A DNA stretch of 57,449 nt from a bacterium (GTDB taxonomy: Bacteria; SZUA-79; Acidulodesulfobacterales; Acidulodesulfobacteraceae). The DNA lies in the NCBI GenBank assembly GCA_021828445.1, contig JAJZJD010000001.1, positions 1-57,449 on the forward strand, in the 5' to 3' direction. The notes beneath the pieces were generated by a model. It was not told the origin of the DNA. It worked only from the letters and a program-made list of their open reading frames with translations, and made no database searches. The position numbers were made by a program, and so were the translations under genes. Positions 8,744 to 42,724 of the stretch are shown piece by piece. Each line of letters opens with the position of its first letter. The first letter of the stretch is position 1.

Positions 8744-9103
<360 letters not shown>

Positions 9104-9236
9104 TCAATGTCGCCGTAAAATGTAAAATGATTAAATTTTTAGCATATCTATATCAATATAGATAATGAATATAGATAATGCGCAGTATTTTAAAAACAGT
9201 ATATTAAAAATAAATATTAAGGAGGAATGGGAAATT

Positions 9237-10595
9237 ATGAATCTCATTAAAAAATTAAAAAATTTTAAAATACCTTTGATATACGGCTGGTCTTTATTAG
9301 GCGGACTAATGCTGGTAATGTTTTCCTGGGTAAGCCCCGTATTTGCGGCTGCCTCGAAGATTCCTGCGTTTAACAGCGGAGATATAGCCTGGGTGCTTGC
9401 CTCGTCCGCATTGGTTTTAATAATGACGCCGGGACTTGGTTTTTATTACGGCGGCATGGTAAGAAGAAAAAACGTTTTAAATACGATTTCGCTTAGTTTT
9501 ATCGCTATTTGCACGGTAAGCATTATATGGATTCTATGGGGATATTCATTGGCATTCGGCCCCGATTCTTTTGGGGGAATAATAGGCAGTCTTAAATATA
9601 TAGGCTTATTTGCGATGAAGGAAACGCAGCATTCAAGATACGACGGCAAGATTCCTTCTTATATTTACGTTATGTTTCAGTTGATGTTTGCAATTATAAC
9701 CGTCGCTCTTGTCAGCGGTTCATTAGTTGAAAGAATTAAATTTTCTTCTTGGGTAATATTTACCATAGTATGGCTTACGGTTGTTTATGCTCCGGTTGCT
9801 CAAGCTGTATGGGGTATCGGAGGGTTGTTTAATAAAATGGGAGCGCTCGATTTTGCCGGCGGAACGGTAGTCCATATTAATTCCGGCGTCGCGGGTCTTG
9901 CAGGGGCATTAGTCCTTGGAAAAAGAAAAGGCTATATGAAAGAAAATATAGTTCAGCCCAATCAGTTAGGTTATACAATACTGGGAGGCGCTCTTTTATG
10001 GTTCGGATGGTTCGGATTTAACGCGGGAAGCGCCTTAGAGGCAAATCCTTTAGCAACGTCGGCATTTTTGGTGACAAATACCGCTACGGCAGCCGCCGCT
10101 ATAGGCTGGATGATAGCCGAATGGATCAGAAGCGGAAAACCGACGACTCTCGGTATGGTTTCCGGCGCCGTTGCCGGACTTGTAGCTATAACTCCCGCAT
10201 CGGGTTTCGTAAATCCGATAGATTCTATTATTATAGGTTTCGTAGCAGGGGTAATTTGTTATTCTATGGTAGTTTTCGTTAAACCGAAATTAGGCTACGA
10301 CGATGCACTCGATGCCTTTAACGTTCATGCGATAGGCGGTGCATGGGGAGCACTTGCAACCGGTTTGTTTGCCGACCCGCTGATTAATTCGGCAGGAAGA
10401 GGTTTGTTTTACGGCAATCCAGGTCAAATGTGGATTCAGCTGTTGACCGTAGTTTGCGTTGCGGCGTATTCGTTTACGATGAGTTATATAATCTTTAAAG
10501 TAATAGACAAAGTTATGGGCCTTCGCGTCGATAAAGAAACCGAGGCAATGGGTTTGGATATTACGCAGCATGACGAAGCGGGTTATAATTTCTAA
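9237..10595 (+). CDS. amtB: ammonium transporter
   Basis: Amt signatures DFAGGTVVHINSGVAGL and FGWFGFNAGS, multiple TM helices. ATG at 9237 follows AAGGAGG, so the longer ORF-track start is unlikely. Confidence 0.93.
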   Translation: MNLIKKLKNFKIPLIYGWSLLGGLMLVMFSWVSPVFAAASKIPAFNSGDIAWVLASSALVLIMTPGLGFYYGGMVRRKNVLNTISLSFIAICTVSIIWILWGYSLAFGPDSFGGIIGSLKYIGLFAMKETQHSRYDGKIPSYIYVMFQLMFAIITVALVSGSLVERIKFSSWVIFTIVWLTVVYAPVAQAVWGIGGLFNKMGALDFAGGTVVHINSGVAGLAGALVLGKRKGYMKENIVQPNQLGYTILGGALLWFGWFGFNAGSALEANPLATSAFLVTNTATAAAAIGWMIAEWIRSGKPTTLGMVSGAVAGLVAITPASGFVNPIDSIIIGFVAGVICYSMVVFVKPKLGYDDALDAFNVHAIGGAWGALATGLFADPLINSAGRGLFYGNPGQMWIQLLTVVCVAAYSFTMSYIIFKVIDKVMGLRVDKETEAMGLDITQHDEAGYNF

Positions 10596-10610
10596 TTATT
10601 AATATAAAAA

Positions 10611-10634
10611 CGGGACGAATTTAAATTCGTCCCG
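10611..10634. terminator. bidirectional intrinsic terminator between convergent amtB and gspE-like gene
   Basis: Perfect 24-nt palindrome CGGGACGAATTTAAATTCGTCCCG, flanked by an A-run upstream and a T-run downstream. Confidence 0.7.
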
Positions 10635-10676
10635 TTTTTATATATTTAATGTTTTTAAGTTTTTCCTTTCTATACT

Positions 10677-12470
10677 TCATACTTCCCTTTTATTGCTTTT
10701 AATATACGGCAATATTTCTTCCAAAGAAGTAACGCCGCTTAAAAATTTTTCTTTTGCAGAATCCGAAAGAGTTTTCATGCCGTTTTTTATTGCCGACTTT
10801 TCTATTTCGGATTCCGCCGCATTACCGTTTATCAGCTCTCTTATTTCATCGTTTATTTCAAGCATTTCGTATATCGGTATTCTGCCTTTATATCCGGTAT
10901 TATTGCATGTCGGACATCCTTTTGCTTTAGCTTTATAAAGTTTAAAATAATTATTTTTATTTTGCCGGTAATTATCGCTATCGGTGTATGCGGCGGATAT
11001 TCCGAGTTTTTTTACGGCAGATTCGTCAAGTTCTTCTTTGCATTCTAAACAGAGTTTTCTTATAAGCCTTTGCGCTATAATAAGGTTTAAACTCGATGAA
11101 ATTAAAAAAGGTTCGATATTCATATTAATTAATCTTGTTACGGTAGCCGAAGCATTGTTCGTATGAATAGTCGAAAGAACCAGATGCCCCGTCAGTGCAG
11201 CCTGAATGGCTATAGAAGACGTTTCGTAATCCCTGATTTCCCCTACCATAATTATATCAGGATCCTGTCTTAAGAAAGATCTGAGAACCTCGGCAAAATT
11301 TAAAGTTGCGCCGGTCTTAGAATTTTTAAGCGTTTCGTCTATCTGTATCTGATTTATCCCTGAAAAATCATATTCTATCGGATCTTCCGCCGTCGATATA
11401 TTTATAGATTCGTTTTTATTTAGTTCGCTTAATATGGAATAAAGCGTCGTAGTTTTTCCGGAACCGGTAGGACCGGTAACGAGTATCATGCCGAAAGGCT
11501 TATTTATTGCAGATTTTAGTATGTTTAAATGAGCCGGAGAAAACCCCACCCTGTTTATATCGAAAATCAGAGACGATTTATTCAATATCCTCATGACTAT
11601 TTTTTCGCCGAAAAGTGTCGGCGCCAAGGATACTCTTAAATCAATTTCTTGTCCGGAAACCGATGTAGAAATTCTTCCGTCCTGAGGAAATCGTTTTTCC
11701 GATATATCTAAATTAGGCTCGCACTTTATTTTTATCACGGATACTATATTCGATTTTGCGGTTGAAGAAATATTGGCATATCCGATAAGTTTCCCGTCTA
11801 TCCTGAATCTTATCCTTGAAAACTTTCTATAATTTTCTATATGTATATCGCTTGCTCCGCGTTCTACGGCATCGCTTATAACTTTATTTATGAATTTTTC
11901 TACCGCGCTTTCGCTGATTTTATCTTTTGTTATGTCGCTTATTTCGCTGTCTTCCGCAATCGTTTGCGCTGAATTTTCATCGTTTTTAAATTTGTCGAGC
12001 AGGAAAGAAGCGTTGTAGTATTTAGACATTGCGTTTATTATCTGCGAATAAGAGGATATCGAATATAATGCCGGAAATCCGGTAATAAATCCTATATCGT
12101 CGGCAACGTCCATTCTTGACGGATCGTATGCAGCTAAATAAAGGTTTCCGTTTTCTATTTTATAAGGTATAACGCGGCATTTTAAAGCTTTATCGGGCGG
12201 AATTATGTTGATAACATTTTTTGGAATATCTACGGCGTTTATATCGACGTATTCTATTTTATAAAATTTAGATAAAAAATCTACAAGTTCGTTTTCTTTT
12301 ATTTTGTTTTCGTCTATAAGAATTTTTAGAAAAGATTTGACAGGTAAATTCTCTTTTTTTAAAGCCGATTCTAAATCCGCTTTTTCTATTAAACCGTTAG
12401 ATACTAAAATTTCTCCGAGTTTCTGCTCTCCGGTATTTTTTTTGGGATAACAGTTTAAATTTGTATCCAT
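10677..12470 (-). CDS. GspE/PilB-family secretion ATPase (type II secretion / type IV pilus)
   Basis: Walker A GPTGSGKTTT, Asp/His boxes (MVGEIRD, LTGHLVLSTIHTN), a tetracysteine CLEC...CPTC motif and an N-terminal T2SSE_N-like domain (KLGEILVSNGLIEKADLESAL). Confidence 0.85.
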   Translation of the reverse strand: MDTNLNCYPKKNTGEQKLGEILVSNGLIEKADLESALKKENLPVKSFLKILIDENKIKENELVDFLSKFYKIEYVDINAVDIPKNVINIIPPDKALKCRVIPYKIENGNLYLAAYDPSRMDVADDIGFITGFPALYSISSYSQIINAMSKYYNASFLLDKFKNDENSAQTIAEDSEISDITKDKISESAVEKFINKVISDAVERGASDIHIENYRKFSRIRFRIDGKLIGYANISSTAKSNIVSVIKIKCEPNLDISEKRFPQDGRISTSVSGQEIDLRVSLAPTLFGEKIVMRILNKSSLIFDINRVGFSPAHLNILKSAINKPFGMILVTGPTGSGKTTTLYSILSELNKNESINISTAEDPIEYDFSGINQIQIDETLKNSKTGATLNFAEVLRSFLRQDPDIIMVGEIRDYETSSIAIQAALTGHLVLSTIHTNNASATVTRLINMNIEPFLISSSLNLIIAQRLIRKLCLECKEELDESAVKKLGISAAYTDSDNYRQNKNNYFKLYKAKAKGCPTCNNTGYKGRIPIYEMLEINDEIRELINGNAAESEIEKSAIKNGMKTLSDSAKEKFLSGVTSLEEILPYIKSNKREV

Positions 12471-12695
12471 TTTTATATCTTATATTATTTCGATATAATT
12501 AATAAATTTATAATATTTTAATCTTATATTATTAAAATTATAATATGCATTTAAATTAAAAAAAATTATATCATTTAAAAATATTATGGGCAACGTAATA
12601 ATTTAAACGCAATAATTAAATTGACATAAATTCTTTAAATTATATAATAATAAATAATAGTATAATTTGTTATATAAAAAATTAGGAGATACTTT

Positions 12696-14093
12696 ATGTC
12701 TAAACTGCTCGACGTAAAAATTATTCCGCATAGAAGTTACCTAATGGCAGATACACCGGATCAAAAACTTTTTATAGAGTTAAAGCTTCAGGCAAACCGG
12801 AAGACCGATTTTAAACCTAATTTATCTATAGCGTTTATAATAGATACTTCTGGGTCTATGAGGGAGATTGTTGCCGGTTCTCCGGTAAATACGGGGAAAA
12901 TGCAGACTATGGACGGCAGTACTTATAATATAGTAGCCGGAGGCGATTCTAAAATAGGAATTTTAATCGACGGACTGAAAAAATTTGTCGATTCGGCGAA
13001 ATTGAAAAATACCGACAGGGTAAGCCTTATTAAATTTGACGATAAAGCGGATGTTTTATTGCCTTTCGTTAATATAGAGAGTAAAAATAAGGATTTAATA
13101 TTGAATGCAATAGACAGTCTTATAAATTACAGCGGCGGCACGTCAATGGGCGCGGGAATGAAAGAGGCTTTAAATTTAATGTCTAAAGAAACCGGAAACA
13201 GAAAGATTATACTGCTCACCGACGGACAGACCTCCGACGAGGATTTGGTAAAAGAAATGTCGCTGGAACTGGCAAAATTAAATATACCGTTAATAGCCGT
13301 AGGAATCGGCGAAGACTGGAACGAAAATCTTATTTCTTTTATTACCGATAAAACGCAAGGCAAACCTTATTATGCTTCGGTTAACGGCGAAGACGATGCA
13401 TCGGGAATAATTATAAAACCGTCGGATATACCGGGCATTATGATAAAAGAATTAGAACATGCGGTTAATGAAACTCTATCCGGTGTATCTCTTGCGTTAA
13501 ATACGGTAAAAGACGTCGCTATAGACAGGATAACGAAAGTTTATCCAGAAGTTTCCGAGGTCGATATAAATATAAAACCTCATTTTCTCGGCAGTATAAA
13601 TCCCGAAGGAAACAGCGTTTTTATAATAGAATCTACTTTGCCTGAACGCAAACCCCTCAAATCCCGTCTTATGCAGCTAAGTTTAACTTACGATATGCCG
13701 GATGGAAATTACCGCGGAGAAAATCCTCCCGAAGACGTTATAGTCGAGTTTACTATGGACGAATCCAAGGCATCGGTTGTTAATAACGAAGTAATGCAGT
13801 GGGTTCAGCAAAGAAATGTAGGCAGTTTATTGGAAAAAGCAATAAAAGAAGCCGGCGAGGATCCTTCCAACGCCTCTAAAACTTTAGATATGGCAAAGCG
13901 TATGACAGTTAAGCTCGGCAATAGCGCTATGACGAAAATAATAGAGAGGGCGCAGGATGAAATAAAAGAAAATAAAACTATAAGCATCGGTACGTCGAAA
14001 ACTTTAAGGATAGGTTCAAAAACAAAAACAATAAAAATTAGTCCGGAAAGCGAACTTTCCGACGAGCAGATTAGAAAACTTGCCGGAATTTAA
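12696..14093 (+). CDS. von Willebrand factor A (vWA) domain protein
   Basis: MIDAS motif IAFIIDTSGSM, plus later GGTSMG and LLTDGQTSD. About 230-aa C-terminal extension of unknown fold. Confidence 0.8.
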   Translation: MSKLLDVKIIPHRSYLMADTPDQKLFIELKLQANRKTDFKPNLSIAFIIDTSGSMREIVAGSPVNTGKMQTMDGSTYNIVAGGDSKIGILIDGLKKFVDSAKLKNTDRVSLIKFDDKADVLLPFVNIESKNKDLILNAIDSLINYSGGTSMGAGMKEALNLMSKETGNRKIILLTDGQTSDEDLVKEMSLELAKLNIPLIAVGIGEDWNENLISFITDKTQGKPYYASVNGEDDASGIIIKPSDIPGIMIKELEHAVNETLSGVSLALNTVKDVAIDRITKVYPEVSEVDINIKPHFLGSINPEGNSVFIIESTLPERKPLKSRLMQLSLTYDMPDGNYRGENPPEDVIVEFTMDESKASVVNNEVMQWVQQRNVGSLLEKAIKEAGEDPSNASKTLDMAKRMTVKLGNSAMTKIIERAQDEIKENKTISIGTSKTLRIGSKTKTIKISPESELSDEQIRKLAGI

Positions 14094-14160
14094 TTAATTA
14101 ACTTTAACCGTCTGAGCTTTAATTTTTATAAAAATCTAAGAATAATACCAGGAGGATGAA

Positions 14161-14361
14161 ATGAAAATATGTCCGGTATGTAAAAAAAAGTTTACGGACG
14201 ATAAGAAATTTTGTAATATAGACGGTTCCGAATTAATAGATTTTGAAATGCCGGAAGAAAATTTAAGCTTAAACAAACCTTCAATTAATAATATTGAAAG
14301 CTCAAATGAAAACCTATCCGGCGCCGCCGGTAATTTACCTGAAAATATAGAAAAACCGTAA
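14161..14361 (+). CDS. small zinc-ribbon protein
   Basis: CPVC-x11-CNIDG ribbon at the N-terminus. GGAGG RBS. The stop codon abuts the ATG of the FHA gene. Confidence 0.5.
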   Translation: MKICPVCKKKFTDDKKFCNIDGSELIDFEMPEENLSLNKPSINNIESSNENLSGAAGNLPENIEKP

Positions 14362-14715
14362 ATGATTGCGGATTTTAAACCTGCGCGTTTAACATTTAAA
14401 ATAGGCGGCAGTTTAACGGATAAATCTTTTGATTTAAAATCTGATTATTTGATTGCAGGCAGGTTCGATTCGTCTGCCGGTCCAATAGATATCGATTTGT
14501 CCGGATTTTCCGGAGACGAGCACATATCGAGGAAACATGCGAAATTTACTTTTGAAAACGGCAAATGGTTTGTTTCAGACGCAGGTTCCACAAACGGCGT
14601 TTTTGTAAAATCTGCTTCAGCTAACGAATTTTCGTCAAGAATTACCGGACCGGTCGAATTAAATAACGGGGACGAAGTATCGTTAGGCAATATGCTTTTT
14701 ATGTTTAACGTCTAA
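14362..14715 (+). CDS. FHA domain protein
   Basis: GR...ISRKHAKFTFENGKWFVSDAGSTNGVFV...GDEVSLG is the canonical FHA core (Arg, Ser-x-x-His, Asn-Gly). Confidence 0.85.
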   Translation: MIADFKPARLTFKIGGSLTDKSFDLKSDYLIAGRFDSSAGPIDIDLSGFSGDEHISRKHAKFTFENGKWFVSDAGSTNGVFVKSASANEFSSRITGPVELNNGDEVSLGNMLFMFNV

Positions 14716-14790
14716 ATAAATATATTAAATTATTTAACGTCTATTTATACATATTATTATATATATAACGCATAAACCGGCAGTGATTTA

Positions 14791-16419
14791 ATGCATAAAG
14801 AAAAACTTGAAGAAAAAATATATTCGGAACCTTCCGAAACGCAGCTTTTAAAAGAAGGCGATATAATAAACGCCGGCGGCATTGAATTAAAAATCGAAGG
14901 TCCTTTTATACAAGGATGGCATTCGGCTAAAAATAATGCGGGAGAACCGGTTTTGTATTACAGGGGTAATTGCGGTTTATGGAAAGACGTTCTTGGATGT
15001 TCCGCCCTGCCCGATATTTTGCTTTGTACGGATAATGAAATAATAATTTCGGCGCATAACGAATATACAAAATACGAATTTAAAATTCCTTCTTCAAAAA
15101 AAGAAACCGGACTAATAGTAAAATATATTTCCGATTTAGCTGAAATTATCAAGTTTTTTAACGGACAGGGAATATCTGTGCTATATATCAATCCCGATTC
15201 TTTATATGTTTGCGGCGATAAAATTAAATTGAATATACTGCCCGATTTATCGGAAATCGGAAAAAAAATGTTTTCACCGAGAGATTTCGTCGCCCCTGAA
15301 GTTTTAATGCATGATATCGCAACCGGAAAAGAAGGAGTTTACGTACTGGGTCTTATTGCTTACAAGTTTTTAACGGGAGATAATATAAATACTTACAATA
15401 TCGATGTTTCAAATTATATTAACGATATAAAAATACCGGGTTTCCCCCAATTTTTATCCAGAACGCTTTCAAGGCGGGAAGAGAGATTTAATATCGATGA
15501 AGCAATAGGTTATTTAAAAAATATTAACGAAGAAAGAAAAGCGGCGGTAAGATTCGATATAGGAATATCTTCGTCCGTAGGCTTAAATCCGGATAGGCTT
15601 GTAGATGAAGATGCCTGCGGTTACTTTATCGAAAACAATATAAATTTTAGCGAAAAAAACGTCGTGCTAAAAGCATGCCTTGCGGATGGGATGGGCGGAA
15701 TGGCGGCTGGAGAATATGCAAGCAAGGCTGCCGTTAAAGGTTTTTTGAAAAATTCAGAAAACGGCGAAAATTTTTCTAAAGACCTTAACGATCTAGTAAT
15801 GGATTCGGCATGGCAGGCAAATAAAAGCGTATTCGACGAGCTTCGAGGAAAAGACGGCGGCTGTACTTTTATAGGCATTATTTTTAAAAACGAGACGTTT
15901 GCTTTGGCTCATGTCGGGGATTCAAGGGCTTATCTCTGGGTTAATTCGGAATCGGAAGATAAATTAAAAAGGCTGACAAAAGATCATTCTTATGTTTCGC
16001 TTATGGTATCAAGCGGCAATATGTCCGAAGAAGAAGCAAGAATAAGCCCGGACAGAAATAAAATTTTAAAATCCTTGGGAATAGTAAGGAACAGACAGAA
16101 CGAATATTTTGACGATTTACAAAAAACTATAGGAAAAAAAACGGAAGATTTAAATATAGGCGATATTATTCTAATAGTATGCGACGGGATATGGTCGGAG
16201 TTGGAAGAGATAGATATCATGAAGATTTTAAGCAATTCATCCTGCGGCATTGAATACTCTGAAGCTAAAGACGCGGAAGCAAAAGACGACGACTGCGCCG
16301 TTTGCGGCACTATAAATAAATTCGGCGCTCAATATATAGCCGATACGCTTGTTTCTTTCGCAATAGAAAAAGGGGCTCCCGATAATGCGACGGCTCTTGT
16401 TATTAAGCGTATTTCATAG
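14791..16419 (+). CDS. degenerate protein-kinase-like domain fused to a PP2C-family Ser/Thr phosphatase
   Basis: C-terminal half carries PP2C motifs ADGMGGMAAGEYAS, HVGDSRAYL, VCDGIW and DNATALVI. The N-terminal half keeps a kinase C-lobe-like APE segment (DFVAPEV...GLIAYKFLTG) but has INPDSL instead of HRD-K-x-x-N and no DFG. Confidence 0.75.
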   Translation: MHKEKLEEKIYSEPSETQLLKEGDIINAGGIELKIEGPFIQGWHSAKNNAGEPVLYYRGNCGLWKDVLGCSALPDILLCTDNEIIISAHNEYTKYEFKIPSSKKETGLIVKYISDLAEIIKFFNGQGISVLYINPDSLYVCGDKIKLNILPDLSEIGKKMFSPRDFVAPEVLMHDIATGKEGVYVLGLIAYKFLTGDNINTYNIDVSNYINDIKIPGFPQFLSRTLSRREERFNIDEAIGYLKNINEERKAAVRFDIGISSSVGLNPDRLVDEDACGYFIENNINFSEKNVVLKACLADGMGGMAAGEYASKAAVKGFLKNSENGENFSKDLNDLVMDSAWQANKSVFDELRGKDGGCTFIGIIFKNETFALAHVGDSRAYLWVNSESEDKLKRLTKDHSYVSLMVSSGNMSEEEARISPDRNKILKSLGIVRNRQNEYFDDLQKTIGKKTEDLNIGDIILIVCDGIWSELEEIDIMKILSNSSCGIEYSEAKDAEAKDDDCAVCGTINKFGAQYIADTLVSFAIEKGAPDNATALVIKRIS

Positions 16420-16530
16420 TTTCGTCTTAATGCTGCCGTTTCTTTTATATCTTTTTATATTATTAATTTAATCGGGTTACGATATTAAAATTAAGATAAA
16501 AAAACAAAATTAAAACAAAATTAATTTAAT

Positions 16531-18258
16531 ATGACGGATTGTCCTTATTGTTCCTCTCCTATACCTGATAATGCAGTAAAATGTCCGGTTTGCGGAGGAG
16601 ATATATCTGACGCTTTAGGAGAAAGCTCTTCCTGTACTCCGCTCGATAACGGGAGTATTGTTTTTTTAAAATATAAAATAGAAAAAGTCTTAGGGCAGGG
16701 CGGTTTCGGAATAACATATCTTGCTTATGACGAAAAGTTAGAAAGAAAAGTTGCGATAAAAGAATATTTTCCCGACGGTATTGCCGTCAGAACAGGAAGC
16801 AAAGTTACAATTCCGCCAACCCGCGACAACGAAGAAAATATAGAAAATTTTAAAAATGAAGCAAAATCTATAGCAAAATTAAAGAATCCATGGATAGTCG
16901 ATGTTTACGACGTAATCGAAGAAAACGGCACCGTTTATATCGTCATGGAATACATCGAAGGAACGCCCCTGTCCTCTCTTTTAGGGAAAATAAAAGAAAA
17001 TGAAGCCGTTAAATATATAAAACAGATTGTCAAAGCAGTAGGAATAATACATTCCGCCGGCATGCTGCATCAAGATATAAAGCCGGAAAATATTATATTA
17101 AAAAACGGCGAAGAAATTAAAATTATAGATTTTGGTTCTTCCAGAGTATTTACGGCGGATAAAACTAAAACTTACGAAAAAATTTTAACGCCGGGCTATG
17201 CTCCTTTAGAGCAATACGGAGGCAAAGGTAAAAGAGGCGAATATACCGATGTTTATGCAATATGCGCTACACTATACGCTCTTTTAAAAGGATTTCCTCC
17301 TCCGGAAGCTACCGAATTAGCCGGAGGAATAGGCATAGATTTTACGGGAATAAGCGTCGGATTAAAAGATATTTTGAATAAAGGACTAACGGTAAAAATA
17401 CCGGAAAGGATAAAAAATACGGAGGAATTGCTTAAACTTTTAGGCGAATTAGAAAAGCCCGAAGTTTTTGCCGCCGACGAAGGAAATATATCCGAAATTA
17501 AAAATTCGAGCGGTGCCTCCTCCGTCAAATTTAACCAAAGAGAAAATAAGCAGGCAATTACGTTCGGACGACCGGGCGATGCTATCGCCGGAAATATCGG
17601 AGCGGATAAAGCAGAAATACCAAATCCCCCCGGAGTTAAAAACAATATAAATTCAAATTCAAACTATAATTATAATTCGAAAAATACAATAAATTTAATT
17701 ATTGCCGCCGCCGCAATAATACTTCCCTTATTTCTTTTAATTGCGGCAGGTTATTTTTTTTATTTTAGAGATTTTTTCCTTAAAAAAAATATAACCGCCA
17801 ATTCCGGAAATGCGGCAGTTTCAAAAAAAACATTAAACTTAAAACCGTTCTCTAAAAATAATAACAAAAACATTAAAAACAAAAATATTAATAATACTCA
17901 TGTGCAGCAGCCTGCGTTAAATCAAAATACGGCCGCCCGCCATATTACATATCATCGCCGTTACCGCAAACCGGCATTCAGCCCTGCTCCCGCACCCCAA
18001 TTTCAGCCGCAATCCCATACTTCCGTATTTACCGGTCCGGGCTATGAAGATTTCAATATGTCGGGATGTTTTTACTGCCACGTTATATTCGGCAAAGGGA
18101 AACAGGGCGGTTACAGCCTTTCCCATATCGGTTCGCAGTTAAGTTATGCGCAGATAGAAAATCAGATTACGCATCCAAGTTCTTCTATGCCGCCTAACCC
18201 AAATATGCCTGCAGAAGAAGTCGCGCAGATTGCGGGCTGGTTAGAAAGTTTAAAATAA
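16531..18258 (+). CDS. Ser/Thr protein kinase with N-terminal zinc ribbon, one TM helix and a C-terminal extracytoplasmic cytochrome c (CXXCH) domain
   Basis: CPYC-x11-CPVC ribbon. Kinase motifs GQGGFGITY, VAIKE, HQDIKPENI, DFGSS, GYAPLE. TM helix LIIAAAAIILPLFLLIAAGYFFYF. CFYCH at nt 18067-18081, followed by SSMPPNP and an amphipathic C-terminal helix as in class I c-type cytochromes. Confidence 0.8.
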   Translation: MTDCPYCSSPIPDNAVKCPVCGGDISDALGESSSCTPLDNGSIVFLKYKIEKVLGQGGFGITYLAYDEKLERKVAIKEYFPDGIAVRTGSKVTIPPTRDNEENIENFKNEAKSIAKLKNPWIVDVYDVIEENGTVYIVMEYIEGTPLSSLLGKIKENEAVKYIKQIVKAVGIIHSAGMLHQDIKPENIILKNGEEIKIIDFGSSRVFTADKTKTYEKILTPGYAPLEQYGGKGKRGEYTDVYAICATLYALLKGFPPPEATELAGGIGIDFTGISVGLKDILNKGLTVKIPERIKNTEELLKLLGELEKPEVFAADEGNISEIKNSSGASSVKFNQRENKQAITFGRPGDAIAGNIGADKAEIPNPPGVKNNINSNSNYNYNSKNTINLIIAAAAIILPLFLLIAAGYFFYFRDFFLKKNITANSGNAAVSKKTLNLKPFSKNNNKNIKNKNINNTHVQQPALNQNTAARHITYHRRYRKPAFSPAPAPQFQPQSHTSVFTGPGYEDFNMSGCFYCHVIFGKGKQGGYSLSHIGSQLSYAQIENQITHPSSSMPPNPNMPAEEVAQIAGWLESLK

Positions 18259-18300
18259 AACAATCAAACAAATTATAAATCTAAAATAAGGAGCTAAAAA

Positions 18301-18831
18301 ATGAAAATTATTCTTAAAAAAAATTTAATTTTTGCATTGATTGCGGCGGGTATGCTGTTTGCGTTAAATTATATTAACTGCAATAAAGTTTATGCGGCGG
18401 TAGGCGGCACTTTAAAAAATATGCAGTCAAAATACAAAATGCAAAAGATTTCTTTGAAAAAACTTTATATTATACAGCCCGATCTGTCGCAGTATAATTA
18501 TAAAAATTCCGGTATAACGGCATACGAATATAAGATTAACAAAGTTAAATACGAAGCGGTGTTTAATGCCGGCGGAGTATGCTGGCTGGAATTTGCTATT
18601 TCTAATAATTCGGCGGTAATACCGTTAAGTTCTTTGATCGAAAAAAATCTTTACGGTTATCCGATACTATTCAAAACTATAAAATACGTACCTAACGTTT
18701 ACGAAAAATTGCAGTATGGGAGAAACGTAGGAAAAGTGATTTATATAATGCAGTATATTTACGAAAACAATTCCATATTGCAGGAAGCGGTTATGCCTTC
18801 CATGTCTCCGGACGGCAACTACGGAAATTAA
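18301..18831 (+). CDS. secreted hypothetical protein
   Basis: Signal peptide (…NKVYA-AVGG) and a good RBS (AAGGAG). No recognisable domain. Confidence 0.45.
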   Translation: MKIILKKNLIFALIAAGMLFALNYINCNKVYAAVGGTLKNMQSKYKMQKISLKKLYIIQPDLSQYNYKNSGITAYEYKINKVKYEAVFNAGGVCWLEFAISNNSAVIPLSSLIEKNLYGYPILFKTIKYVPNVYEKLQYGRNVGKVIYIMQYIYENNSILQEAVMPSMSPDGNYGN

Positions 18832-18853
18832 AAGAAAAGCCTTAACTTTAACT

Positions 18854-20185
18854 TTACTTAATCAGCGGATTAATAAGCAATCCGCTGATTAGTTTAGGAT
18901 AAAAATATGTAGATTTTTGAGGCATTCTAAGGTTTATAGAAGCTATTTTTATTACGTCCTCTATTTTAGTAGGATTCATAAAGAATACGGCTTCGAGTTC
19001 TCCCTTGTGAACTTTTTCTAAAGCTTTTTTTGCATCTTTTTCATATACGAGATATTTTTGGTTATCGATTTCTTCCTGCGTTATTTCTAAAGCTTTTTTT
19101 AAAATATATTCCTGAAGGATAGATACGTCGAGATTATCCAAAGGGTTTGTCGTTTTTGCGTCCGCGGTTTCTTTTTTAAACGAGAGTATAAAATTTTTTC
19201 CGGATTTATGGGCAAAACCGAAAGAAACGTATTTTTCGCCGATTTTTTTATTTTCATTTATCAGGTCGCCGGCATTCGTTTCTTTAAATATGAAATATTT
19301 GCTTAAAATTTCTATAAAATTTTCAATATCTATATTTTTTCCTTTTATGCCTCTATGCGTAGGTAAAATAACCAATCCTTTCTGTCCTGAAGGCGCAAAA
19401 AACATAAGGCACGAATCGGCGTCGATACCTTTATTATCTAATCCGTTTTTTTTAACGTAGTCCCTGTAATTAAGACATGTTTCGAATCTGTGGTGTCCGT
19501 CCGCGATATAAACTGATTTACCGCTCATCTCATTTTGGATATCGGATATAATTTTTTCATCTTCTACTTCGTAAAGTATGTTTCTAATTTCGCTGTCGTC
19601 TATGAAATCGAACAGTTTTTTAACTTCTTTTTCCGATACCGCCGTTTTTAAAATATTCAAAACTTTTTGATTATTGTCTTCAAATACGGAAAAAATAGGG
19701 CTGAAATTTGCATTTGCGGCTTCCATCAGCTTAAAGCGGTCTTCTTTAGGTTTGGAAAGTGTAGCTTCGTGGCCGTATATAGAGTTATTTTCTTTAGATT
19801 CCGGAAGTTTAAAAAGAGACATAAAGCCGGTTCTTTCGTATGCGGTTCCGTCGATATTAAAAATTTGCGAGTAAACGTAAATCGAGTTTTTTTCTGCTTT
19901 TTTTAAAATGCCCCTGCCCGTCCATTCATCATATAAGCGGGCCGCCCTTGTATATTTATTTTCCTTATCGCCGTCGCCGCCTAATTCCTTTCCGTATTCG
20001 AGCCTTATTATATTGTATTGCGACCTTTCATATAGTTCGCTCTGAAGTTCTTTGCTTATTACGTCATAAGGCGGGGCTGTAAGATTTTTAATTTCTCCGG
20101 ACGAATTAACGTCGTAAATATAAGGCATAAAAGGTTCTATTATTGTTTTAATTTTTTTTTCGTCGATTTTATTCATAGAACTCAA
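18854..20185 (-). CDS. DUF1015-family protein
   Basis: N-terminal APPYDVIS motif, internal IADGHHRFET, and a length of about 440 aa are typical of DUF1015. Confidence 0.65.
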   Translation of the reverse strand: MSSMNKIDEKKIKTIIEPFMPYIYDVNSSGEIKNLTAPPYDVISKELQSELYERSQYNIIRLEYGKELGGDGDKENKYTRAARLYDEWTGRGILKKAEKNSIYVYSQIFNIDGTAYERTGFMSLFKLPESKENNSIYGHEATLSKPKEDRFKLMEAANANFSPIFSVFEDNNQKVLNILKTAVSEKEVKKLFDFIDDSEIRNILYEVEDEKIISDIQNEMSGKSVYIADGHHRFETCLNYRDYVKKNGLDNKGIDADSCLMFFAPSGQKGLVILPTHRGIKGKNIDIENFIEILSKYFIFKETNAGDLINENKKIGEKYVSFGFAHKSGKNFILSFKKETADAKTTNPLDNLDVSILQEYILKKALEITQEEIDNQKYLVYEKDAKKALEKVHKGELEAVFFMNPTKIEDVIKIASINLRMPQKSTYFYPKLISGLLINPLIK

Positions 20186-20261
20186 GAATTTAATAAAATA
20201 AATTAATTATCTTTATTATTTTTACAGATAAAAATGAAATATAAAATATTGCTTAGAACCG

Positions 20262-21176
20262 TTATAAAATAGGAGTCGAACTGGGCGTTGCGTAAGAATG
20301 CAATCCCGGTATTATCAAATCTACGCCGAGATAACAGAATATAACTACCGCAAATCCGATGACGGCGATCCACGCCATTTTTTTACCGCCCCATCCTTTG
20401 GTAAATCTTGCATGAATAAATAAAATGTATGCTATCCACGTTATAAGCGACCATGTTTCTTTAGGATCCCAGCTCCAGTAACCGCCCCAGGCGCTGTCCG
20501 CCCATGCGGCGCCAATTACTATTCCTGCGGTTAAAAAAACGAGCCCGACCGATATCACCTTATAAATAGATTCTTCTATTACTGCAGATTCCGGCAAAAG
20601 CGATAAAAATCGGTTTTGCTTTTTCTGCTTTGTGTTTTCGATATCTTTATTTTTTGATTTGCCGGTTTTTATAAGATAAAGTATTCCAAGACCGAATGAA
20701 GCCGCAAATGCGCCGTATGCGACAAATAAAGTCATAATATGGTATATAAGCCAGTAGCTTTGCAGAGCAGGAATTGTAGGTTCTATTGCGCTTGTCGCAA
20801 GAGGATAAAAAGTTGCGAAAGCAAGAGCCGCCGATGCTATAAACGTAATTATAAAACCAAGGGCATCAAAATCGTAAAAAATTCTTAAAATTATATAACC
20901 GATTTCGATAACGTAAGCAAAGAAAACCATAGAGTCGTATAGATCGACTAACGGCGGCGTATCTATCCCGATTTTATAGGCATATATCCATCTTATAACG
21001 AATGCCGCGGTCTGAATTATAAAACCCGCAATTAGAATAACGAAAGATATTTTTGAAATCATCTTGCTTCCGGTAAATAAAAAAATAAAATAACCTATAA
21101 AAGAAGCGAACACGAAAAGAAGCGAAACCGTAAAATATAAGGAACCGTCAAGTACGGATATATTCGGCGAAATCAT
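20262..21176 (-). CDS. ccsA: cytochrome c biogenesis protein CcsA/ResC (System II heme handling)
   Basis: Trp-rich WWD motif WGGYWSWDPKETWSLITW, polytopic membrane protein, adjacent to a ResB-like gene. Confidence 0.85.
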   Translation of the reverse strand: MISPNISVLDGSLYFTVSLLFVFASFIGYFIFLFTGSKMISKISFVILIAGFIIQTAAFVIRWIYAYKIGIDTPPLVDLYDSMVFFAYVIEIGYIILRIFYDFDALGFIITFIASAALAFATFYPLATSAIEPTIPALQSYWLIYHIMTLFVAYGAFAASFGLGILYLIKTGKSKNKDIENTKQKKQNRFLSLLPESAVIEESIYKVISVGLVFLTAGIVIGAAWADSAWGGYWSWDPKETWSLITWIAYILFIHARFTKGWGGKKMAWIAVIGFAVVIFCYLGVDLIIPGLHSYATPSSTPIL

Positions 21177-21211: not shown

Positions 21212-22567
21212 TTAATGTAAGTATTTTTTTAGTTCGCTAATTTTTTTATCAAATTTCTTGTAAAAAGAATTAAATTTCTTTTTTGGAATAGAAATTATTT
21301 CAATCTTCGTTTTTTTAGCATCATTAATGCCGGATAGCGATACCCACGTCTCTTCGTGATTAAAGAAAAATGAAAAAAATAAAGAAATCACAAGAATTAT
21401 ACATCCTATCCAAACTACAGATACGTAAGTATTTTTAGATATTTCGACGCCGCTGTAATAGTAAGTTTTTAATTGCGGAGTCATTATAAAGCCGATATTT
21501 TTATATCTTGCTATAATAAGCGGGAAATTGTTATTTTTAACCCGTATAACCCTAAAATTTAAAATTTTTTTATTATTTAGTTTAATTATATAAGGGAAAT
21601 AGGGCATTTTACCTTTTCTAACAACCCTGATTAGCATAAATTTAATGTTATTTATTTTAGAATTATAATATTTTCCCGCCGATGCATATATTATTTTTTT
21701 AAAAGATTTAATGTGCCGTAAATTAACTATTAAGATACCGTATTTGTCAGGTTTATAATGTCCGTAGCTTGCCTGGTAGATAGTAATGCCTTTATAAGTT
21801 AAAGGATGGTTTACCTCTATGTTTTTTGTCAAAATTCTTATATGTTCTTCAATTATACTTATAGTGCTAATGTAAGCCTTAGGAATTCCGTCAGAATAAT
21901 AAGTCGTGCGGTATCTGTCGAGCCTTATCGTAAACGGAAGTTTAATCGGTTTGTTGTTTTTTAAAAGGTAAGTAACGTTAGTTTTTTTTCCTACTTTAAT
22001 GTTGGTATAAGACCTGAATCCGTATTTAAAATTAAGCAACACTCCTATAATAATAATTATTACGCTTATGTGGGCAATGTAAGGAGAAAATCTGAAAATA
22101 GAATTTCGGGAATAGTATAATTCTGCTTTATCGCTGTTTTCGCTTATTTTTTCGTATAACGGCTCCCCGAATTTTTTACCTATAACTTCTTTTAATTCTT
22201 CCGGTTTCTTTTTTGTTTCGATTGCCTCATATACCGCTTTAGGGTTTTTCTTTTCCGATACTTCTTGAAAAGAGGGATAAGGACCGAAAACCGCTTTTAT
22301 AGTACGCGGAAACATATTGATAGATGCGGCTATAAGATTAACTATCAGAAGCAGGGTAAGCGCGATGAAATACCACGAATCGTAAATATTTAAAAAGCCG
22401 AGCCAGTATAATACGTGATAAGCCGCCGGCGAAAAAATAGTTTTATACTGTTTTATCGTATCGCCTTGGTTTATAAACGTACCTATCATTGCAAGAACGG
22501 CGATTGTTATAAAAAGAAAAACGGCGAGTTTAACAGAAGAAATAAATTTATTTAATTTTGACAGCAT
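21212..22567 (-). CDS. ccsB: cytochrome c biogenesis protein CcsB/ResB
   Basis: N-terminus KLAVFLFITIAVLAMIGTFINQG, a large extracytoplasmic loop and a C-terminal TM helix. Immediately upstream of ccsA. Confidence 0.75.
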   Translation of the reverse strand: MLSKLNKFISSVKLAVFLFITIAVLAMIGTFINQGDTIKQYKTIFSPAAYHVLYWLGFLNIYDSWYFIALTLLLIVNLIAASINMFPRTIKAVFGPYPSFQEVSEKKNPKAVYEAIETKKKPEELKEVIGKKFGEPLYEKISENSDKAELYYSRNSIFRFSPYIAHISVIIIIIGVLLNFKYGFRSYTNIKVGKKTNVTYLLKNNKPIKLPFTIRLDRYRTTYYSDGIPKAYISTISIIEEHIRILTKNIEVNHPLTYKGITIYQASYGHYKPDKYGILIVNLRHIKSFKKIIYASAGKYYNSKINNIKFMLIRVVRKGKMPYFPYIIKLNNKKILNFRVIRVKNNNFPLIIARYKNIGFIMTPQLKTYYYSGVEISKNTYVSVVWIGCIILVISLFFSFFFNHEETWVSLSGINDAKKTKIEIISIPKKKFNSFYKKFDKKISELKKYLH

Positions 22568-33223: not shown

Positions 33224-34120
<897 letters not shown>

Positions 34121-34138
34121 TTTTAAGGAAACCAATAT

Positions 34139-35074
34139 ATGAATAACTATATAAATAATATAAATAAAGATAATAGCATGAAAAATCATTTTACGGCGGA
34201 AATTTCAAAACATCCTTGTTTTAATAAGGAAGCGTCGAAAAATTACGGCAGAGTTCATTTGCCGGTTGCAAAATCATGCAATATTTCTTGCAACTACTGC
34301 CACAGGGATTACGACTGCCAGAACGAATCCAGGCCTGGCGTAACGTCAAGCCTGCTTTCGCCGGAAGAAGCGGTAAACAGGATATATGAAGTAAAAAGAT
34401 TTTTAGGCGATATAAGCGTAGCAGCCGTTGCAGGTCCGGGCGACAGCTTAGCCGAGCCTTTGAATACTATGAAGACGTTTGAACTTGTAAAAAAAGAGTT
34501 TCCTGATATTATTCTATGCATGAGTACGAACGGTCTTAATTTAAGCGATAATTTAGAAGAACTCCTTGATACCGGAGTAAGGTTTATTACTGTAACTCTA
34601 AATGCTATAGACGTTTCCGTTGCACGCAATATTTACAGATACGTTGATTATAAAAATATTATTTATACGGATAAAGAAGCGGCTGAAATATTGCTTGAAA
34701 AACAGATTAAAGGAATAGAAAGAGCGGTTAAAACGGGTTTTACTATAAAAATTAATTCCGTGCTTATACCCGGTATAAACGATTTTCATATAAAAGATAT
34801 AGCAGAACAAGCAAAAAAACTTGGAGTATATCTTTTTAACGTTATGCCGATGATACCGGCAAAAAACTCTTATTTTGAAAAAATAGGGGTAAAAGGCGCC
34901 GTTAGAAAAGACGTTACGGATATAACTAAAGGCATTGAAGGCATAAATATAATGGAGCATTGCAGACAGTGCCGATCCGACGCTGCGGGACTTTTAGGCG
35001 AAGACTTAAGCGGCAAACTAATTTCTGAGAAAGGAGGTTTAAAATGCGAATGCAGCAAGAAGATGCGGTTTTAG
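34139..35074 (+). CDS. nifB: radical SAM FeMo-cofactor biosynthesis protein NifB (radical-SAM core only, no NifX-like C-terminal domain)
   Basis: HPCFNKEASKNYGRVHLPVAKSCNISCNYCHRDYDCQNESRPGVTS is the NifB signature (CxxxCxxC plus ESRPG). Confidence 0.85.
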   Translation: MNNYINNINKDNSMKNHFTAEISKHPCFNKEASKNYGRVHLPVAKSCNISCNYCHRDYDCQNESRPGVTSSLLSPEEAVNRIYEVKRFLGDISVAAVAGPGDSLAEPLNTMKTFELVKKEFPDIILCMSTNGLNLSDNLEELLDTGVRFITVTLNAIDVSVARNIYRYVDYKNIIYTDKEAAEILLEKQIKGIERAVKTGFTIKINSVLIPGINDFHIKDIAEQAKKLGVYLFNVMPMIPAKNSYFEKIGVKGAVRKDVTDITKGIEGINIMEHCRQCRSDAAGLLGEDLSGKLISEKGGLKCECSKKMRF

Positions 35075-35823
35075 GGTGCAAACTGTCAAAAAGTTTGAGT
35101 TTTTCTCAGGATGAAGAGCTTTATATCGCCACGAGCGATACTAAAATCAAAATGATAGAGGACTATGCGCCGTTTGTCGACAAAATTTTAAACGATATTT
35201 CTTATATTCCGAGAAATATTTTAGATTTAGGATGCGGTCCGGGTTATATAGCAAGAAGATTGAGCGAAGTTTTGCCGAATGCTACGGTTTTTGGGGTTGA
35301 TAAATCGCATGTCATGATAAATCATGCGAATAAAGCTATAAATGAATCGTTAAGAAATAATTACATTTTTCGTTCAGAATTTGAAACAGACGGCGGACCG
35401 CTTGAAATGTTTGGAAAAGAGCCGGATTATTTGCATTATTATGAGCCGAGGCTTAAATATATGATTGCCGACAGCGCCAATCTTCCGTTTTGTAATTTAA
35501 AATTTGATTTAATTTTATTAAAAGGAACGTATAAATGTTTAGAAAATAAGATAGATTCCCTCAAAGAGATGTATCGGGTTTTAAGCCACGGCGGTAAAAT
35601 TTTTATATACGAGTTCAGAAAAGATATTCCGGAAGATGAATTCGCCTTACTGACTAAACATATGAAGCCGCAAAAAGTAAAATCGCTAAGGCGTAAATTG
35701 AACTGCTCGTTAGATATAGAAGAATACAAAAATTATTTATACGAAGCGGGATTAGCTAAATTTTCCCTGATAGAAAACGACGGACTCGATTTAAAAATAA
35801 CTATAAAAAAACTGCATTTATAA
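35044..35823 (+). CDS. class I SAM-dependent methyltransferase
   Basis: Motif I ILDLGCGPGYIARRL, post-I FGVDKS, and later GGKIFIYEF. GGAGG RBS. Overlaps the nifB 3' end by 31 nt. Confidence 0.8.
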   Translation: MRMQQEDAVLGCKLSKSLSFSQDEELYIATSDTKIKMIEDYAPFVDKILNDISYIPRNILDLGCGPGYIARRLSEVLPNATVFGVDKSHVMINHANKAINESLRNNYIFRSEFETDGGPLEMFGKEPDYLHYYEPRLKYMIADSANLPFCNLKFDLILLKGTYKCLENKIDSLKEMYRVLSHGGKIFIYEFRKDIPEDEFALLTKHMKPQKVKSLRRKLNCSLDIEEYKNYLYEAGLAKFSLIENDGLDLKITIKKLHL

Positions 35824-35878
35824 AATTTATAAAGATGAAGTATGCATATAAAAAGCATAAAAAAGGAGGAAAAAAAAT

Positions 35879-36178
35879 ATGAGTATTATGGACGGCTTCT
35901 CCGGAGAAATAGATAATTACATAAGCGCTCCGCGGCGTTCCGGAGTAAAATGGGTTCCGCATTTTTTGATAGAATTCGATCAAGCTAATTGCATATCTTG
36001 CGGAAGATGCATAAAGGTCTGTCCCGGTGGTGTTTACGTTTTTGAAGACGACGGAGATAAAATGATAGTTAAGATAGATAATTTAGATAATTGCATAGGC
36101 GATACCTGCTGTGAAAAAGTGTGTCCTAAGAACAAGACGATGCATCTGCATAGATTTTCGCCGCTTGCGAAAAATTAG
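35879..36178 (+). CDS. small 4Fe-4S ferredoxin-like protein
   Basis: CISCGRCIKVCP (CxxCxxCxxxCP) plus an atypical second motif CIGDTCCEKVCP. Strong RBS. Confidence 0.7.
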   Translation: MSIMDGFSGEIDNYISAPRRSGVKWVPHFLIEFDQANCISCGRCIKVCPGGVYVFEDDGDKMIVKIDNLDNCIGDTCCEKVCPKNKTMHLHRFSPLAKN

Positions 36179-36239
36179 GATTAAAGAATGATATTTATAT
36201 CTAAATATGAATGTGAACTAATAAAAAAAGGAGTTTAAA

Positions 36240-37676: not shown

Positions 37677-37745
37677 AATACATAAAATTTATAAAATTAT
37701 TTAGTTAAGCAATTATAATTATAAAATAATACCGGAGGCTTTATT

Positions 37746-39167: not shown

Positions 39168-39230
39168 GTTTGCTATAAAAATAATAAAAAAATTTGATAG
39201 CATCATAAAATTAAAAGGAAGTGATATAAA

Positions 39231-40589: not shown

Positions 40590-40649
40590 GCAATAATTAG
40601 ATTTGGTCAGAGAAATGAAAAAAGGCTGTTTTATTTTTCGATCAGCAGT

Positions 40650-40756
40650 CGTCATTGTGAGCGAAGCGGACGCAGTCCGGCGAAGCGAAGCAATCTTTTG
40701 GTAGTTTGCAAAATAAAATGCGAGATTGCTTCGTCGCTTTGCTCCTCGCAATGACG
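40650..40756. repeat. imperfect palindromic (REP/MITE-like) element in the nifE-nifN spacer
   Basis: CGTCATTGTGAGCGAAGCG...CGAAGCAATCT // AGATTGCTTCGTCGCTTTGCTCCTCGCAATGACG. When translated it gives the VIARSKATKQS / LRFAHNDD-type pseudo-peptides that I recall from spurious ORF calls on similar palindromic repeats in other genomes. Confidence 0.7.
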
Positions 40757-40831
40757 TAAAAAACGAAAAAGTCAGATTTATTTTTTGATAAGGTTTTATG
40801 CAGCTTTATATTAAAAGCAAGGGATAAAATT

Positions 40832-42698: not shown

Positions 42699-42724
42699 AA
42701 ATTAAAATTACGGATTTGGCACCA

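Follow-up and report, generated by a model that had tools for sequence, protein, structure and literature searches.

The stretch of bacterial DNA analyzed here (57,449 nt of contig JAJZJD010000001.1, from the metagenome-assembled genome of a member of the Acidulodesulfobacteraceae; hereafter the window) carries at 12696-18258 a Ser/Thr phospho-signaling cassette that is probably, in our judgment, a bacterial phospho-switch of the ArnA/ArnB type, encoded together with its own kinase and phosphatase. The cassette combines a vWA protein with the three-domain architecture of archaeal ArnB, a phosphothreonine reader made of a Zn ribbon and an FHA domain, a PP2C phosphatase fused to a pseudokinase, and a Hanks-type kinase that ends in a putative cytochrome c domain. 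An initial annotation of this DNA had described five co-directional genes for a vWA protein with a metal ion-dependent adhesion site (MIDAS), a zinc ribbon, an FHA protein, a PP2C with a degenerate kinase-like domain, and an active-looking kinase. All five open reading frames (ORFs) are present on the + strand at the coordinates it gave, with the FHA start abutting the ribbon stop, and every domain call held in hidden Markov model and Pfam searches and on inspection of motifs. It had also named the right kind of system, a Ser/Thr phospho-signaling cassette. Gene structure and domain identities are well supported, and the picture that emerges is of a known type in a new form, which is neither a one-off nor a strict TerY-P triad nor a new system. 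Domains were called with the Pfam, NCBIfam, and PADLOC libraries, structures were compared using AlphaFold2 (AF2) models and Foldseek, and seven loci from the same lineage (L090, L091, L092, L093, L094, L178, and L179) served as close relatives. In L178, which comes from the same metagenome as the window, the phosphatase is 89% identical, and in L179 it is 85% identical; close homologues carry the labels Candidatus Acidulodesulfobacterium or Acididesulfobacter.

The vWA Protein Is an ArnB-Like Scaffold

The first gene (12696-14093, + strand) encodes a 465-aa protein that matches Pfam VWA with an E-value of 1.4e-19 and in which we found no signal peptide. Its MIDAS can be read from the sequence as D50-T-S52-G-S54, T149, and D176; across 39 homologues T51, S52, G53, S54, and T149 never vary, and D50 and D176 hardly do. 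It is the best-conserved component of the cassette, 40-47% identical over the full length to proteins from Deinococcus and Meiothermus. The AF2 model (predicted local distance difference test 88, predicted template-modeling score 0.85) places the vWA domain at ~43-230, a beta-sandwich at ~258-353 together with N-terminal strands, and a helical bundle at 364-443. All three domains of ArnB (vWA, inserted beta-sandwich, and C-terminal helical bundle) are thereby predicted within one polypeptide. When the model was searched with Foldseek, the first match was 4FX5, an uncharacterized vWA protein of Catenulispora acidiphila from structural genomics, which is the best full-length structural match (E 2.8e-28, TM-scores 0.74/0.80) and to which the family profile aligns over positions 126-413. 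The second was chain 8s05_A of the ArnAB complex (E 2.3e-25, TM-scores 0.64/0.77) and the third 5a8j, the ArnB paralogue vWA2 (E 2.5e-20), followed by eukaryotic Sec23/24. The alignments to 8s05_A and 5a8j span 450-470 columns and cover all three domains. In sequence searches with the single vWA protein, the top phmmer match in the PDB is 8s05_A (E 1.1e-8), and the family profile reaches 7.5e-15 against that chain. The assignment of this protein as an ArnB-like three-domain scaffold is well supported, as is the homology to ArnB itself.

The C-terminal bundle is rich in conserved hydroxyl residues. Nine positions (T396, T404, T413, T428, S430, T433, T436, T443, and T445) keep Ser or Thr at 87% or more in the 39-sequence alignment, with T404 and T436 invariant. 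They sit in K-T-x-x-I-G-like repeats, they recall the T-rich segment of ArnB, and they are candidate phospho-acceptors.

A Single Base Change Splits the Zn-Ribbon-FHA Reader

The second and third ORFs encode the 66-aa ribbon (14161-14361, + strand) and the 117-aa FHA protein (14362-14715, + strand), the latter matching Pfam FHA at 9e-14 with the canonical GR, SxxH, and NG motifs. The TAA of the ribbon ORF directly abuts the ATG of the FHA ORF without any shift of frame. In six of the seven relatives (all except L092), this is a single uninterrupted Zn-ribbon-FHA gene of 183-235 aa, and the codon corresponding to the stop is AAA or GAA. L178 reads AAA TCG AAA ATG ATT where the window reads AAA CCG TAA ATG ATT; since the Met codon pre-exists in L178, one base change created the stop just before it. 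Farther afield, FHA homologues in Deinococcus, cyanobacteria, Acidimicrobiia, and metagenomes are likewise single polypeptides, with an N-terminal Zn ribbon, a Pro/Ala-rich linker, and then the FHA domain. The ribbon-linker-FHA architecture is therefore carried by one protein in all the relatives examined except L092, and it is interrupted by TAA in the window. Judged from these alignments, the two ORFs are one gene cut by a nonsense change that is specific to the window species, and the gene fission is well supported.

The ribbon itself departs from a four-cysteine pattern. Its motif runs CPVC...C-N-I-D-G, i.e., three Cys and one Asp, before the linker starts, and the second knuckle has the form C-N-[IL]-D-G throughout the lineage, a conserved three-Cys-plus-Asp variant rather than decay. 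We presume that the whole Zn-ribbon-FHA protein resembles FraH, a likeness stated in the Deinococcus preprint discussed below; a literature search on FraH domains gave nothing usable. As a separate observation, the FHA gene of a Deinococcus radiodurans isolate (DRR11; L176, 10178-11121) is annotated as two overlapping coding sequences in different frames, one a "hypothetical protein" with ribbon and linker and the other an 88-aa FHA protein, which may reflect a frameshift or an assembly error.

The Phosphatase Carries a Pseudokinase

The fourth gene (14791-16419, + strand) encodes a 542-aa protein with a PP2C domain at ~262-541 (Pfam PP2C, 6e-10) preceded by a second domain at ~20-255. The PP2C motifs D274, D299-G-x-G-G, D465, and D531-N are invariant among full-length homologues, and the domain looks active. 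Foldseek matches the AF2 model to PstP (1txo, 2.7e-17), and tPphA and Stp1 are also found. Since PP2C structures filled the list for the whole model, which made it uninformative on the N-terminal domain, we used a profile search for the latter. The N-terminal 260 residues on their own have no significant Pfam match. A profile of residues 20-262 built from 15 homologues matched 1,674 kinase sequences in the PDB with E-values down to 2.5e-10, the best being titin kinase, PknB, and ULK1 (~3e-10), and it aligned helix alpha-E, the catalytic loop, APE, and helix alpha-F of these kinases. Taken singly, 6 of the 15 family members are matched by Pfam Pkinase. The catalytic positions are replaced: Y-I-N-P-D-S stands for D-L-K-P-E-N and ILPD for DFG, and neither a Gly-rich loop nor a VAIK lysine is conserved. 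By these sequence criteria, the N-terminal domain is a pseudokinase, in line with the degenerate kinase-like domain described at the outset, and the secondary structure of its AF2 model does not agree with an FHA fold, which would be all beta.

Within the PP2C domain, residues 484-508 (16240-16314) form an insertion that varies in the lineage, has very low model confidence, and shows a C-x17-C-x2-C pattern; at the matching position, L091 has a long Asn-rich insertion.

The Kinase Ends in a Putative Periplasmic Cytochrome c Domain

The fifth gene (16531-18258, + strand) encodes a 575-aa Ser/Thr kinase (Pfam Pkinase, 3.8e-40). It starts with a Zn ribbon at 4-22 (CxxC...CxxC; Zn_Ribbon_1, 5e-4), followed by the kinase domain from 48 to ~310, a transmembrane helix at 387-412, a low-complexity Asn/Lys-rich linker, and a monohaem cytochrome c domain at ~497-575 with CFYCH at 513. 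With GQGGFG, VAIK (Lys77, motif from 74), H-Q-D182-IKPEN, and DFG (motif from 200), all catalytic residues are intact, and the protein appears to be an active Hanks-type kinase. Its catalytic loop is HQD (non-RD) in the whole lineage versus HRD in 13 of 14 cassette kinases from outside it (the motif was not found in L012). The N-terminal CxxC...CxxC is present in all 14 of these outside kinases.

The C-terminal domain is putatively haem-binding and of the class I cytochrome c type. Its matches to Cytochrome_CBB3 in Pfam (2.2e-5) and to c551 in NCBIfam (2.8e-6) are sub-threshold, a phmmer search of the PDB gave only marginal matches (E 0.11), and a word-indexed protein search gave none. An exhaustive HMMER search of a 1.84-billion-protein library returned 225 homologues, the examined ones being cytochromes c. 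Five orthologues share CFYCH and SSSMPP without variation; across them the domain is nearly invariant and the preceding linker is not. Since the kinase is cytoplasmic and one transmembrane helix separates it from the C-terminal domain, the latter must be periplasmic and is predicted to act as an input domain. The initial annotation had the kinase output coupled to a heme sensor, and the topology reverses that direction. Of the ten best matches with this domain at their own C terminus that were checked with Pfam, only two are kinase fusions, both from the window's lineage, and no CxxCH or cytochrome c domain was found in the 14 outside kinases. A module of transmembrane helix, Asn/Lys-rich linker, and cytochrome c that is 55-62% identical recurs in P0243 and P0244, where it is joined to an unrelated cytoplasmic domain of ~200 aa without a Pfam match, in support of a sensor module that is portable.

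Two further observations concern this part of the cassette. In L090 (11883-14039), an in-frame stop parts ribbon and kinase (433 aa) from transmembrane helix and cytochrome c (219 aa), a second split at a linker within the cassette. In the window, ccsA (20262-21176) and resB (21212-22567), both on the - strand and belonging to System II cytochrome c maturation, lie 2 kb downstream of the kinase gene; they are also near the cassette in L093 and L094, which could be a coincidence of synteny.

The Cassette Is Widespread in Bacteria and Matches a Deinococcus Operon

We searched for the cassette with two motif scans. Its gene set (vWA, Zn-ribbon kinase, Zn-ribbon-FHA, and pseudokinase-PP2C) spans at least five phyla of bacteria, namely Deinococcota, Cyanobacteriota, Planctomycetota, Actinomycetota, and Acidulodesulfobacteriota. 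A genome scan with a PP2C motif returned mostly ordinary Stp1-type phosphatases (e.g., from Collinsella), L010-L015 and L018 being the relevant loci among the matches listed, while a metagenome scan with a vWA motif gave 9 full-length relatives among 80 loci. In the PP2C-seeded set, all four genes occur together in two Deinococcus species, an uncultured bacterium, a cyanobacterium, and a member of the Acidimicrobiia; an Isosphaeraceae locus, cut by the contig start, has three of the four and no FHA gene. The Zn-ribbon kinase gene adjoins the vWA gene in all PP2C-seeded loci and in seven of eight vWA-seeded metagenome loci. FHA and pseudokinase-PP2C genes are both found in L010-L015, L098, L100, L176, L177, and six of the seven same-lineage relatives, L092 keeping the PP2C gene. 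In L099, an FHA gene is seen before the contig ends, and the L095 and L096 contigs end within the kinase gene. That the same gene set recurs in several phyla argues that its clustering is not due to chance. Conservation of the neighborhood, proposed as a check in the initial annotation, thus extends from related genomes to other phyla, and it is well supported.

On chromosome II of D. radiodurans, the order is VWA, kinase, FHA, PP2C, corresponding to DRA0331-DRA0334, and tblastn and BLASTP searches of this replicon matched the four genes one-to-one with those of the window. The vWA protein is 43% identical to DRA0331 over its full length, the kinase 42% identical to DRA0332 over ribbon and kinase domain, and the phosphatase 32% identical to DRA0334 over its full length (E 7e-88), so that homology to this operon is well supported. 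A one-to-one match to a characterized system was the outcome that the initial annotation held against its own proposal. The four genes do match, and the Deinococcus operon is only partly characterized. According to a 2026 preprint, DRA0334 shows Mn-dependent phosphatase activity in vitro and removes phosphate from DRA0332, and DRA0332 phosphorylates DRA0333 in vitro; the preprint also reports antagonism of DRA0333 and DRA0334 (10.64898/2026.01.23.701218).

Operon Layout and Neighboring Genes

The five ORFs are separated by 67, 0, 75, and 111 nt, and a further 42 nt separates the kinase gene from orf176 (18301-18831, + strand), a sixth gene that is conserved in the lineage. A promoter-like site, TTGACA-16-TATAAT (12621-12648, + strand), agrees with the consensus at 12 of 12 positions, lies 48 nt before the vWA start codon, and is the sole perfect match in 10500-20300, as judged by consensus only. 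No terminator-like site was found on the + strand between cassette genes, the sole one in the operon being weak and inside orf176 (18612-18626). With a perfect promoter and no intergenic terminator, the cassette genes probably form one operon.

The divergent gene upstream (10677-12470, - strand) encodes an ATPase with Pfam matches to T2SSE (1e-129) and to MshEN (7e-15), a cyclic di-GMP (c-di-GMP)-binding N-terminal domain. It had been labeled GspE, but the NCBIfam PilB model scores higher (603 bits versus 524), still below its cut-off of 675, and we refer to it as PilB-like. The gene adjoins the cassette in the window, L092, L093, L094, L178, and L179, and in L091 it is co-directional with the vWA gene and directly precedes it. 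The L090 locus examined lacks it, as do, outside the lineage, L010-L015 and L095-L103 by phmmer and L176 and L177 by annotation. As for orf176, its product is secreted or periplasmic with an N-terminal signal-like hydrophobic segment, and it has no matches in Pfam, NCBIfam, PADLOC, or the PDB. Homologues (1e-74 to 1e-110) follow the kinase gene in L090, L092, L093, and L094, a 176-aa gene is also present in L178 and L179, and in L091 the homologue lies 3.4 kb downstream of the kinase gene, after an insertion of insertion sequence (IS) and toxin-antitoxin genes. The ATPase and the secreted protein had been regarded as orphan neighbors; they are indeed adjacent, but they are conserved beside the cassette across the lineage and may belong to it.

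The ATPase is a possible functional partner. ArnAB controls the archaellum, which is likewise a type IV filament, and this makes the linkage suggestive; being confined to one lineage, the linkage could also be inherited synteny. It forms, with the periplasmic cytochrome c on the kinase and the HQD loop, a trio of features that appear specific to this phylum-level lineage. The 225-nt, AT-rich intergenic region between the two units (12471-12695), which holds the perfect + strand promoter, also contains a - strand TTGCCC-17-TATAAT with an extended -10 TG pointing to the PilB-like gene, and the two units may be co-regulated. L090 and L091 have prepilin-type genes after orf176; a prepilin motif scan of the 57-kb window found no pilin-like gene. 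The adjacent ATPase and the pilin-like genes of these two relatives seem the best lead for the output of the cassette.

Upstream of the cassette, L091 (1371-4008) and L090 (3674-6090) also encode a pair of membrane proteins with cytoplasmic Zn ribbons that the window lacks. The ribbon is C-terminal in one, which is polytopic, and N-terminal in the other, which has one transmembrane helix and an outer domain; they are possible further partners of the scaffold. Elsewhere in the window, the PilB-like gene has a glnK-amtB pair (8753-10595) just upstream of it, and a nitrogenase cluster (33245-43361) comprises a nifH-like gene (33245-34120), a radical SAM gene, four Oxidored_nitro genes (36240-42166), a NifX-like gene, an ANTAR response regulator gene (42753-43361), and two P-II genes. 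The window also has a single tRNA gene (52308-52381, - strand) and, at ~47.4 kb, just past an isochorismatase gene, a fragment of a HigB-like toxin gene.

A Model for the Switch and Its Alternatives

How the cassette would work as an ArnA/ArnB-type switch can be sketched from archaeal and Deinococcus work, from which we infer the direction of phosphotransfer, the binding of FHA to the scaffold, and the roles of the ribbons. In Sulfolobus, the zinc finger of ArnA binds the beta-sandwich and C-terminal domain of ArnB (PMC12852372), and phosphorylation of the ArnB helical bundle by ArnC leads to recruitment of the ArnA FHA domain (PMC6509490, PMC12852372). By analogy, the membrane kinase would sense a periplasmic signal via its C-terminal cytochrome c domain, with redox state and a small haem ligand as the most plausible candidates, dock on the vWA scaffold, and phosphorylate the conserved threonines of the helical bundle. 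The ribbon of the reader would hold the scaffold constitutively in a loose complex, which would become tight once the FHA domain clamps the phospho-threonines, and the PP2C would reset the switch, its pseudokinase domain recruiting it to the kinase or the scaffold. In the window species, if the FHA half is translated via re-initiation at TAA-ATG, the two binding modes would no longer be tethered to each other.

A wider version of this model strikes us as improbable. It would make the ArnAB-type switch an ancient controller of type IV filaments common to archaea and bacteria, have this acid-mine-drainage lineage couple periplasmic redox state to a c-di-GMP-binding PilB-type ATPase and pilins, and cast the Zn ribbons as a shared docking tag by which the scaffold would gather the kinase, the reader, and perhaps further ribbon-tagged membrane proteins.

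Several points weigh against the ArnA/ArnB-type reading. Sequence similarity between the vWA protein and ArnB comes mainly from the vWA domain, and the FHA ORF matches the ArnA chains in the PDB (5a8i and 8s05_C) weakly (E ~4e-3). The FHA half has no Shine-Dalgarno sequence of its own. L092 has no FHA gene, its vWA gene (from 8544) being followed after a gap of 39 nt by the pseudokinase-PP2C gene (to 11560), and none was found within 10 kb of its cassette; together with the missing Shine-Dalgarno sequence in the window, this suggests that the reader may be dispensable or decaying in the clade. About half of the vWA-seeded loci from outside the lineage have neither an FHA nor a PP2C gene, among them three (L097, L101, and L103) with enough flank to judge. 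Archaeal ArnAB uses PP2A and unlinked kinases, whereas the window has a PP2C and an operon-linked kinase. The Deinococcus preprint covers the interplay of kinase, phosphatase, and FHA protein and not phosphorylation of the vWA protein (10.64898/2026.01.23.701218), and the downstream mechanism of ArnAB itself is not known (PMC12852372).

Some of these points would also fit a cassette that is partly decaying in the window species, with the nonsense change marking the loss of FHA and a vWA-kinase-phosphatase core working alone. A single A-to-T or G-to-T change is enough to make the stop, the FHA ATG has no Shine-Dalgarno sequence before it, L092 would have lost the gene entirely, the in-frame stop of L090 splits kinase from transmembrane helix and cytochrome c, and L097, L101, and L103 show vWA and kinase without FHA or PP2C in other phyla. 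However, the stop exactly precedes an in-frame ATG, so termination and re-initiation are plausible, no additional stop or frameshift interrupts the FHA half, and the allele is identical in nine places, from independent assemblies. The proportions of nonsynonymous and synonymous differences (pN/pS) against the closest relative are 0.033 / 0.224, a low value, and pN/pS is low for both halves against the relatives, which is weak evidence because most of the divergence may predate the split. On balance, we regard decay as unlikely.

The initial annotation compared the cluster with the TerY-P triad, and a module of this type for metal or stress sensing or anti-phage defense is a second alternative to the ArnA/ArnB-type switch. 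The triad (Anantharaman et al. 2012; Gao et al. 2020; via PMC11090510) shares with the window a vWA protein, a PP2C, a Zn-ribbon kinase, and a predicted phosphorylation switch. The comparison is one of composition only. The kinase domain also matches PADLOC mad6 and PD-T4-6, as any Hanks kinase would, copies of the cassette reside on Deinococcus secondary replicons and Nostocales plasmids, and toxin-antitoxin and IS elements are near it in L090-L092. The details are different. The kinases of TerY-P systems have their Zn ribbon or OB fold at the C terminus (PMC11090510), whereas here the ribbon is N-terminal and the C terminus consists of transmembrane helix and cytochrome c. The vWA protein has the ArnB three-domain architecture and is ArnB-like rather than TerY-like. 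No PADLOC model matches the vWA, FHA, or PP2C proteins, and no TerY-specific match to the vWA protein was found in Pfam, NCBIfam, or PADLOC, where the presence of a TerY-specific model was not confirmed. The additions by which the cluster had been set apart from the triad (FHA reader and ribbon, pseudokinase, and haem domain) are real, except that the separate ribbon is the N-terminal half of one Zn-ribbon-FHA gene. Moreover, the neighbors are housekeeping genes (glnK-amtB, ccsA/resB, hrcA-grpE-dnaK, and nif), no Ter, nuclease, or restriction genes are adjacent, and cassette synteny is stable across the lineage. Because kinase architecture and context differ, the TerY-P reading fails, and we consider it highly improbable.

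A generic module gating the envelope, division, or secretion, of the PknB/PstP/FhaA-FhaB or PpkA/PppA/Fha1 (type VI secretion) type that had also been invoked, is less credible still: PpkA systems do join kinase, vWA, PP2C, and FHA (PMC1262709), and NCBIfam gives distant likenesses of the FHA protein to FhaB/FipA, of the PP2C to Stp1, and of the kinase to PknB, but all these scores are far under the family cut-offs, the kinase has no PASTA domain, the vWA is a separate cytoplasmic protein and not a periplasmic kinase domain, and no type VI secretion, divisome, or peptidoglycan genes are found in the annotated ~4.8-47.5 kb of the window.

Comparison with Known Systems

The fold of the vWA protein also recalls eukaryotic COPII. 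Resemblance to Sec23/Sec24 (Foldseek E 1e-16 to 1e-11, TM-score relative to the query ~0.5) covers the vWA "trunk," the beta-sandwich, and the helical domain, with a TM-score of only ~0.35 relative to the target, and ArnAB has itself been described as the archaeal ortholog of the Sec23/24 core motif with an associated Zn-finger element (PDB 8S05 title, PMC12852372). Unlike COPII, the window vWA protein has no gelsolin domain and no Sar1 or Sec13/31 partners, and nothing hints at a vesicle coat.

Compared with DRA0331-DRA0334, the genes of the window are in a different order, vWA-(ribbon/FHA)-PP2C-kinase as opposed to vWA-kinase-FHA-PP2C. DRA0332 has an HRD loop and three C-terminal transmembrane helices (10.64898/2026.01.23.701218), whereas the window kinase has HQD and one helix; the Deinococcus cassette kinases of L010 and L011 have no CxxCH, where the window kinase has CFYCH. 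The metal-binding residues mutated in the preprint, D394 and D419 of DRA0334, align with D274 and D299 of the window phosphatase, and the region termed "KI-FHA" (DRA0334 residues 210-368) aligns with the C-lobe of the window pseudokinase, a kinase fold. The presence of the cassette in other genomes contradicts the preprint's claim that the arrangement is unique to D. radiodurans. In these two respects, our analysis corrects the sole bacterial study: KI-FHA is to be read as pseudokinase, and an operon thought unique to Deinococcus is widespread.

Taken together, these comparisons unite the archaeal ArnA/ArnB switch and a barely studied bacterial operon in one family and join two literatures. 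With kinase and phosphatase in the same operon, the bacterial version offers a compact and testable phosphorylation scheme that could help to find the output of ArnAB, and the cytochrome c-kinase fusion and the single-base split of the reader provide handles on input sensing and on the tethering of ribbon and FHA. Archaeal ArnA/ArnB (Sulfolobus acidocaldarius; 5A8I, 5A8J, and 8S05) and the window have in common a MIDAS vWA, a beta-sandwich, and a Thr-rich bundle on one side and, on the other, a reader in which Zn ribbon, linker, and FHA follow one another (PMC6509490), intact in relatives and split in the window. Like ArnA/ArnB, the window pair is predicted to be under control of a Hanks-type kinase and a Ser/Thr phosphatase, and both lie near the gene for a type IV filament ATPase, which for the cassette is true in the window's lineage only. 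What sets the window apart from ArnAB is that the cassette is bacterial, with ~19% identity between its vWA protein and ArnB in structural alignment, that its phosphatase bears a pseudokinase, and that its kinase bears a Zn ribbon and a periplasmic cytochrome c.

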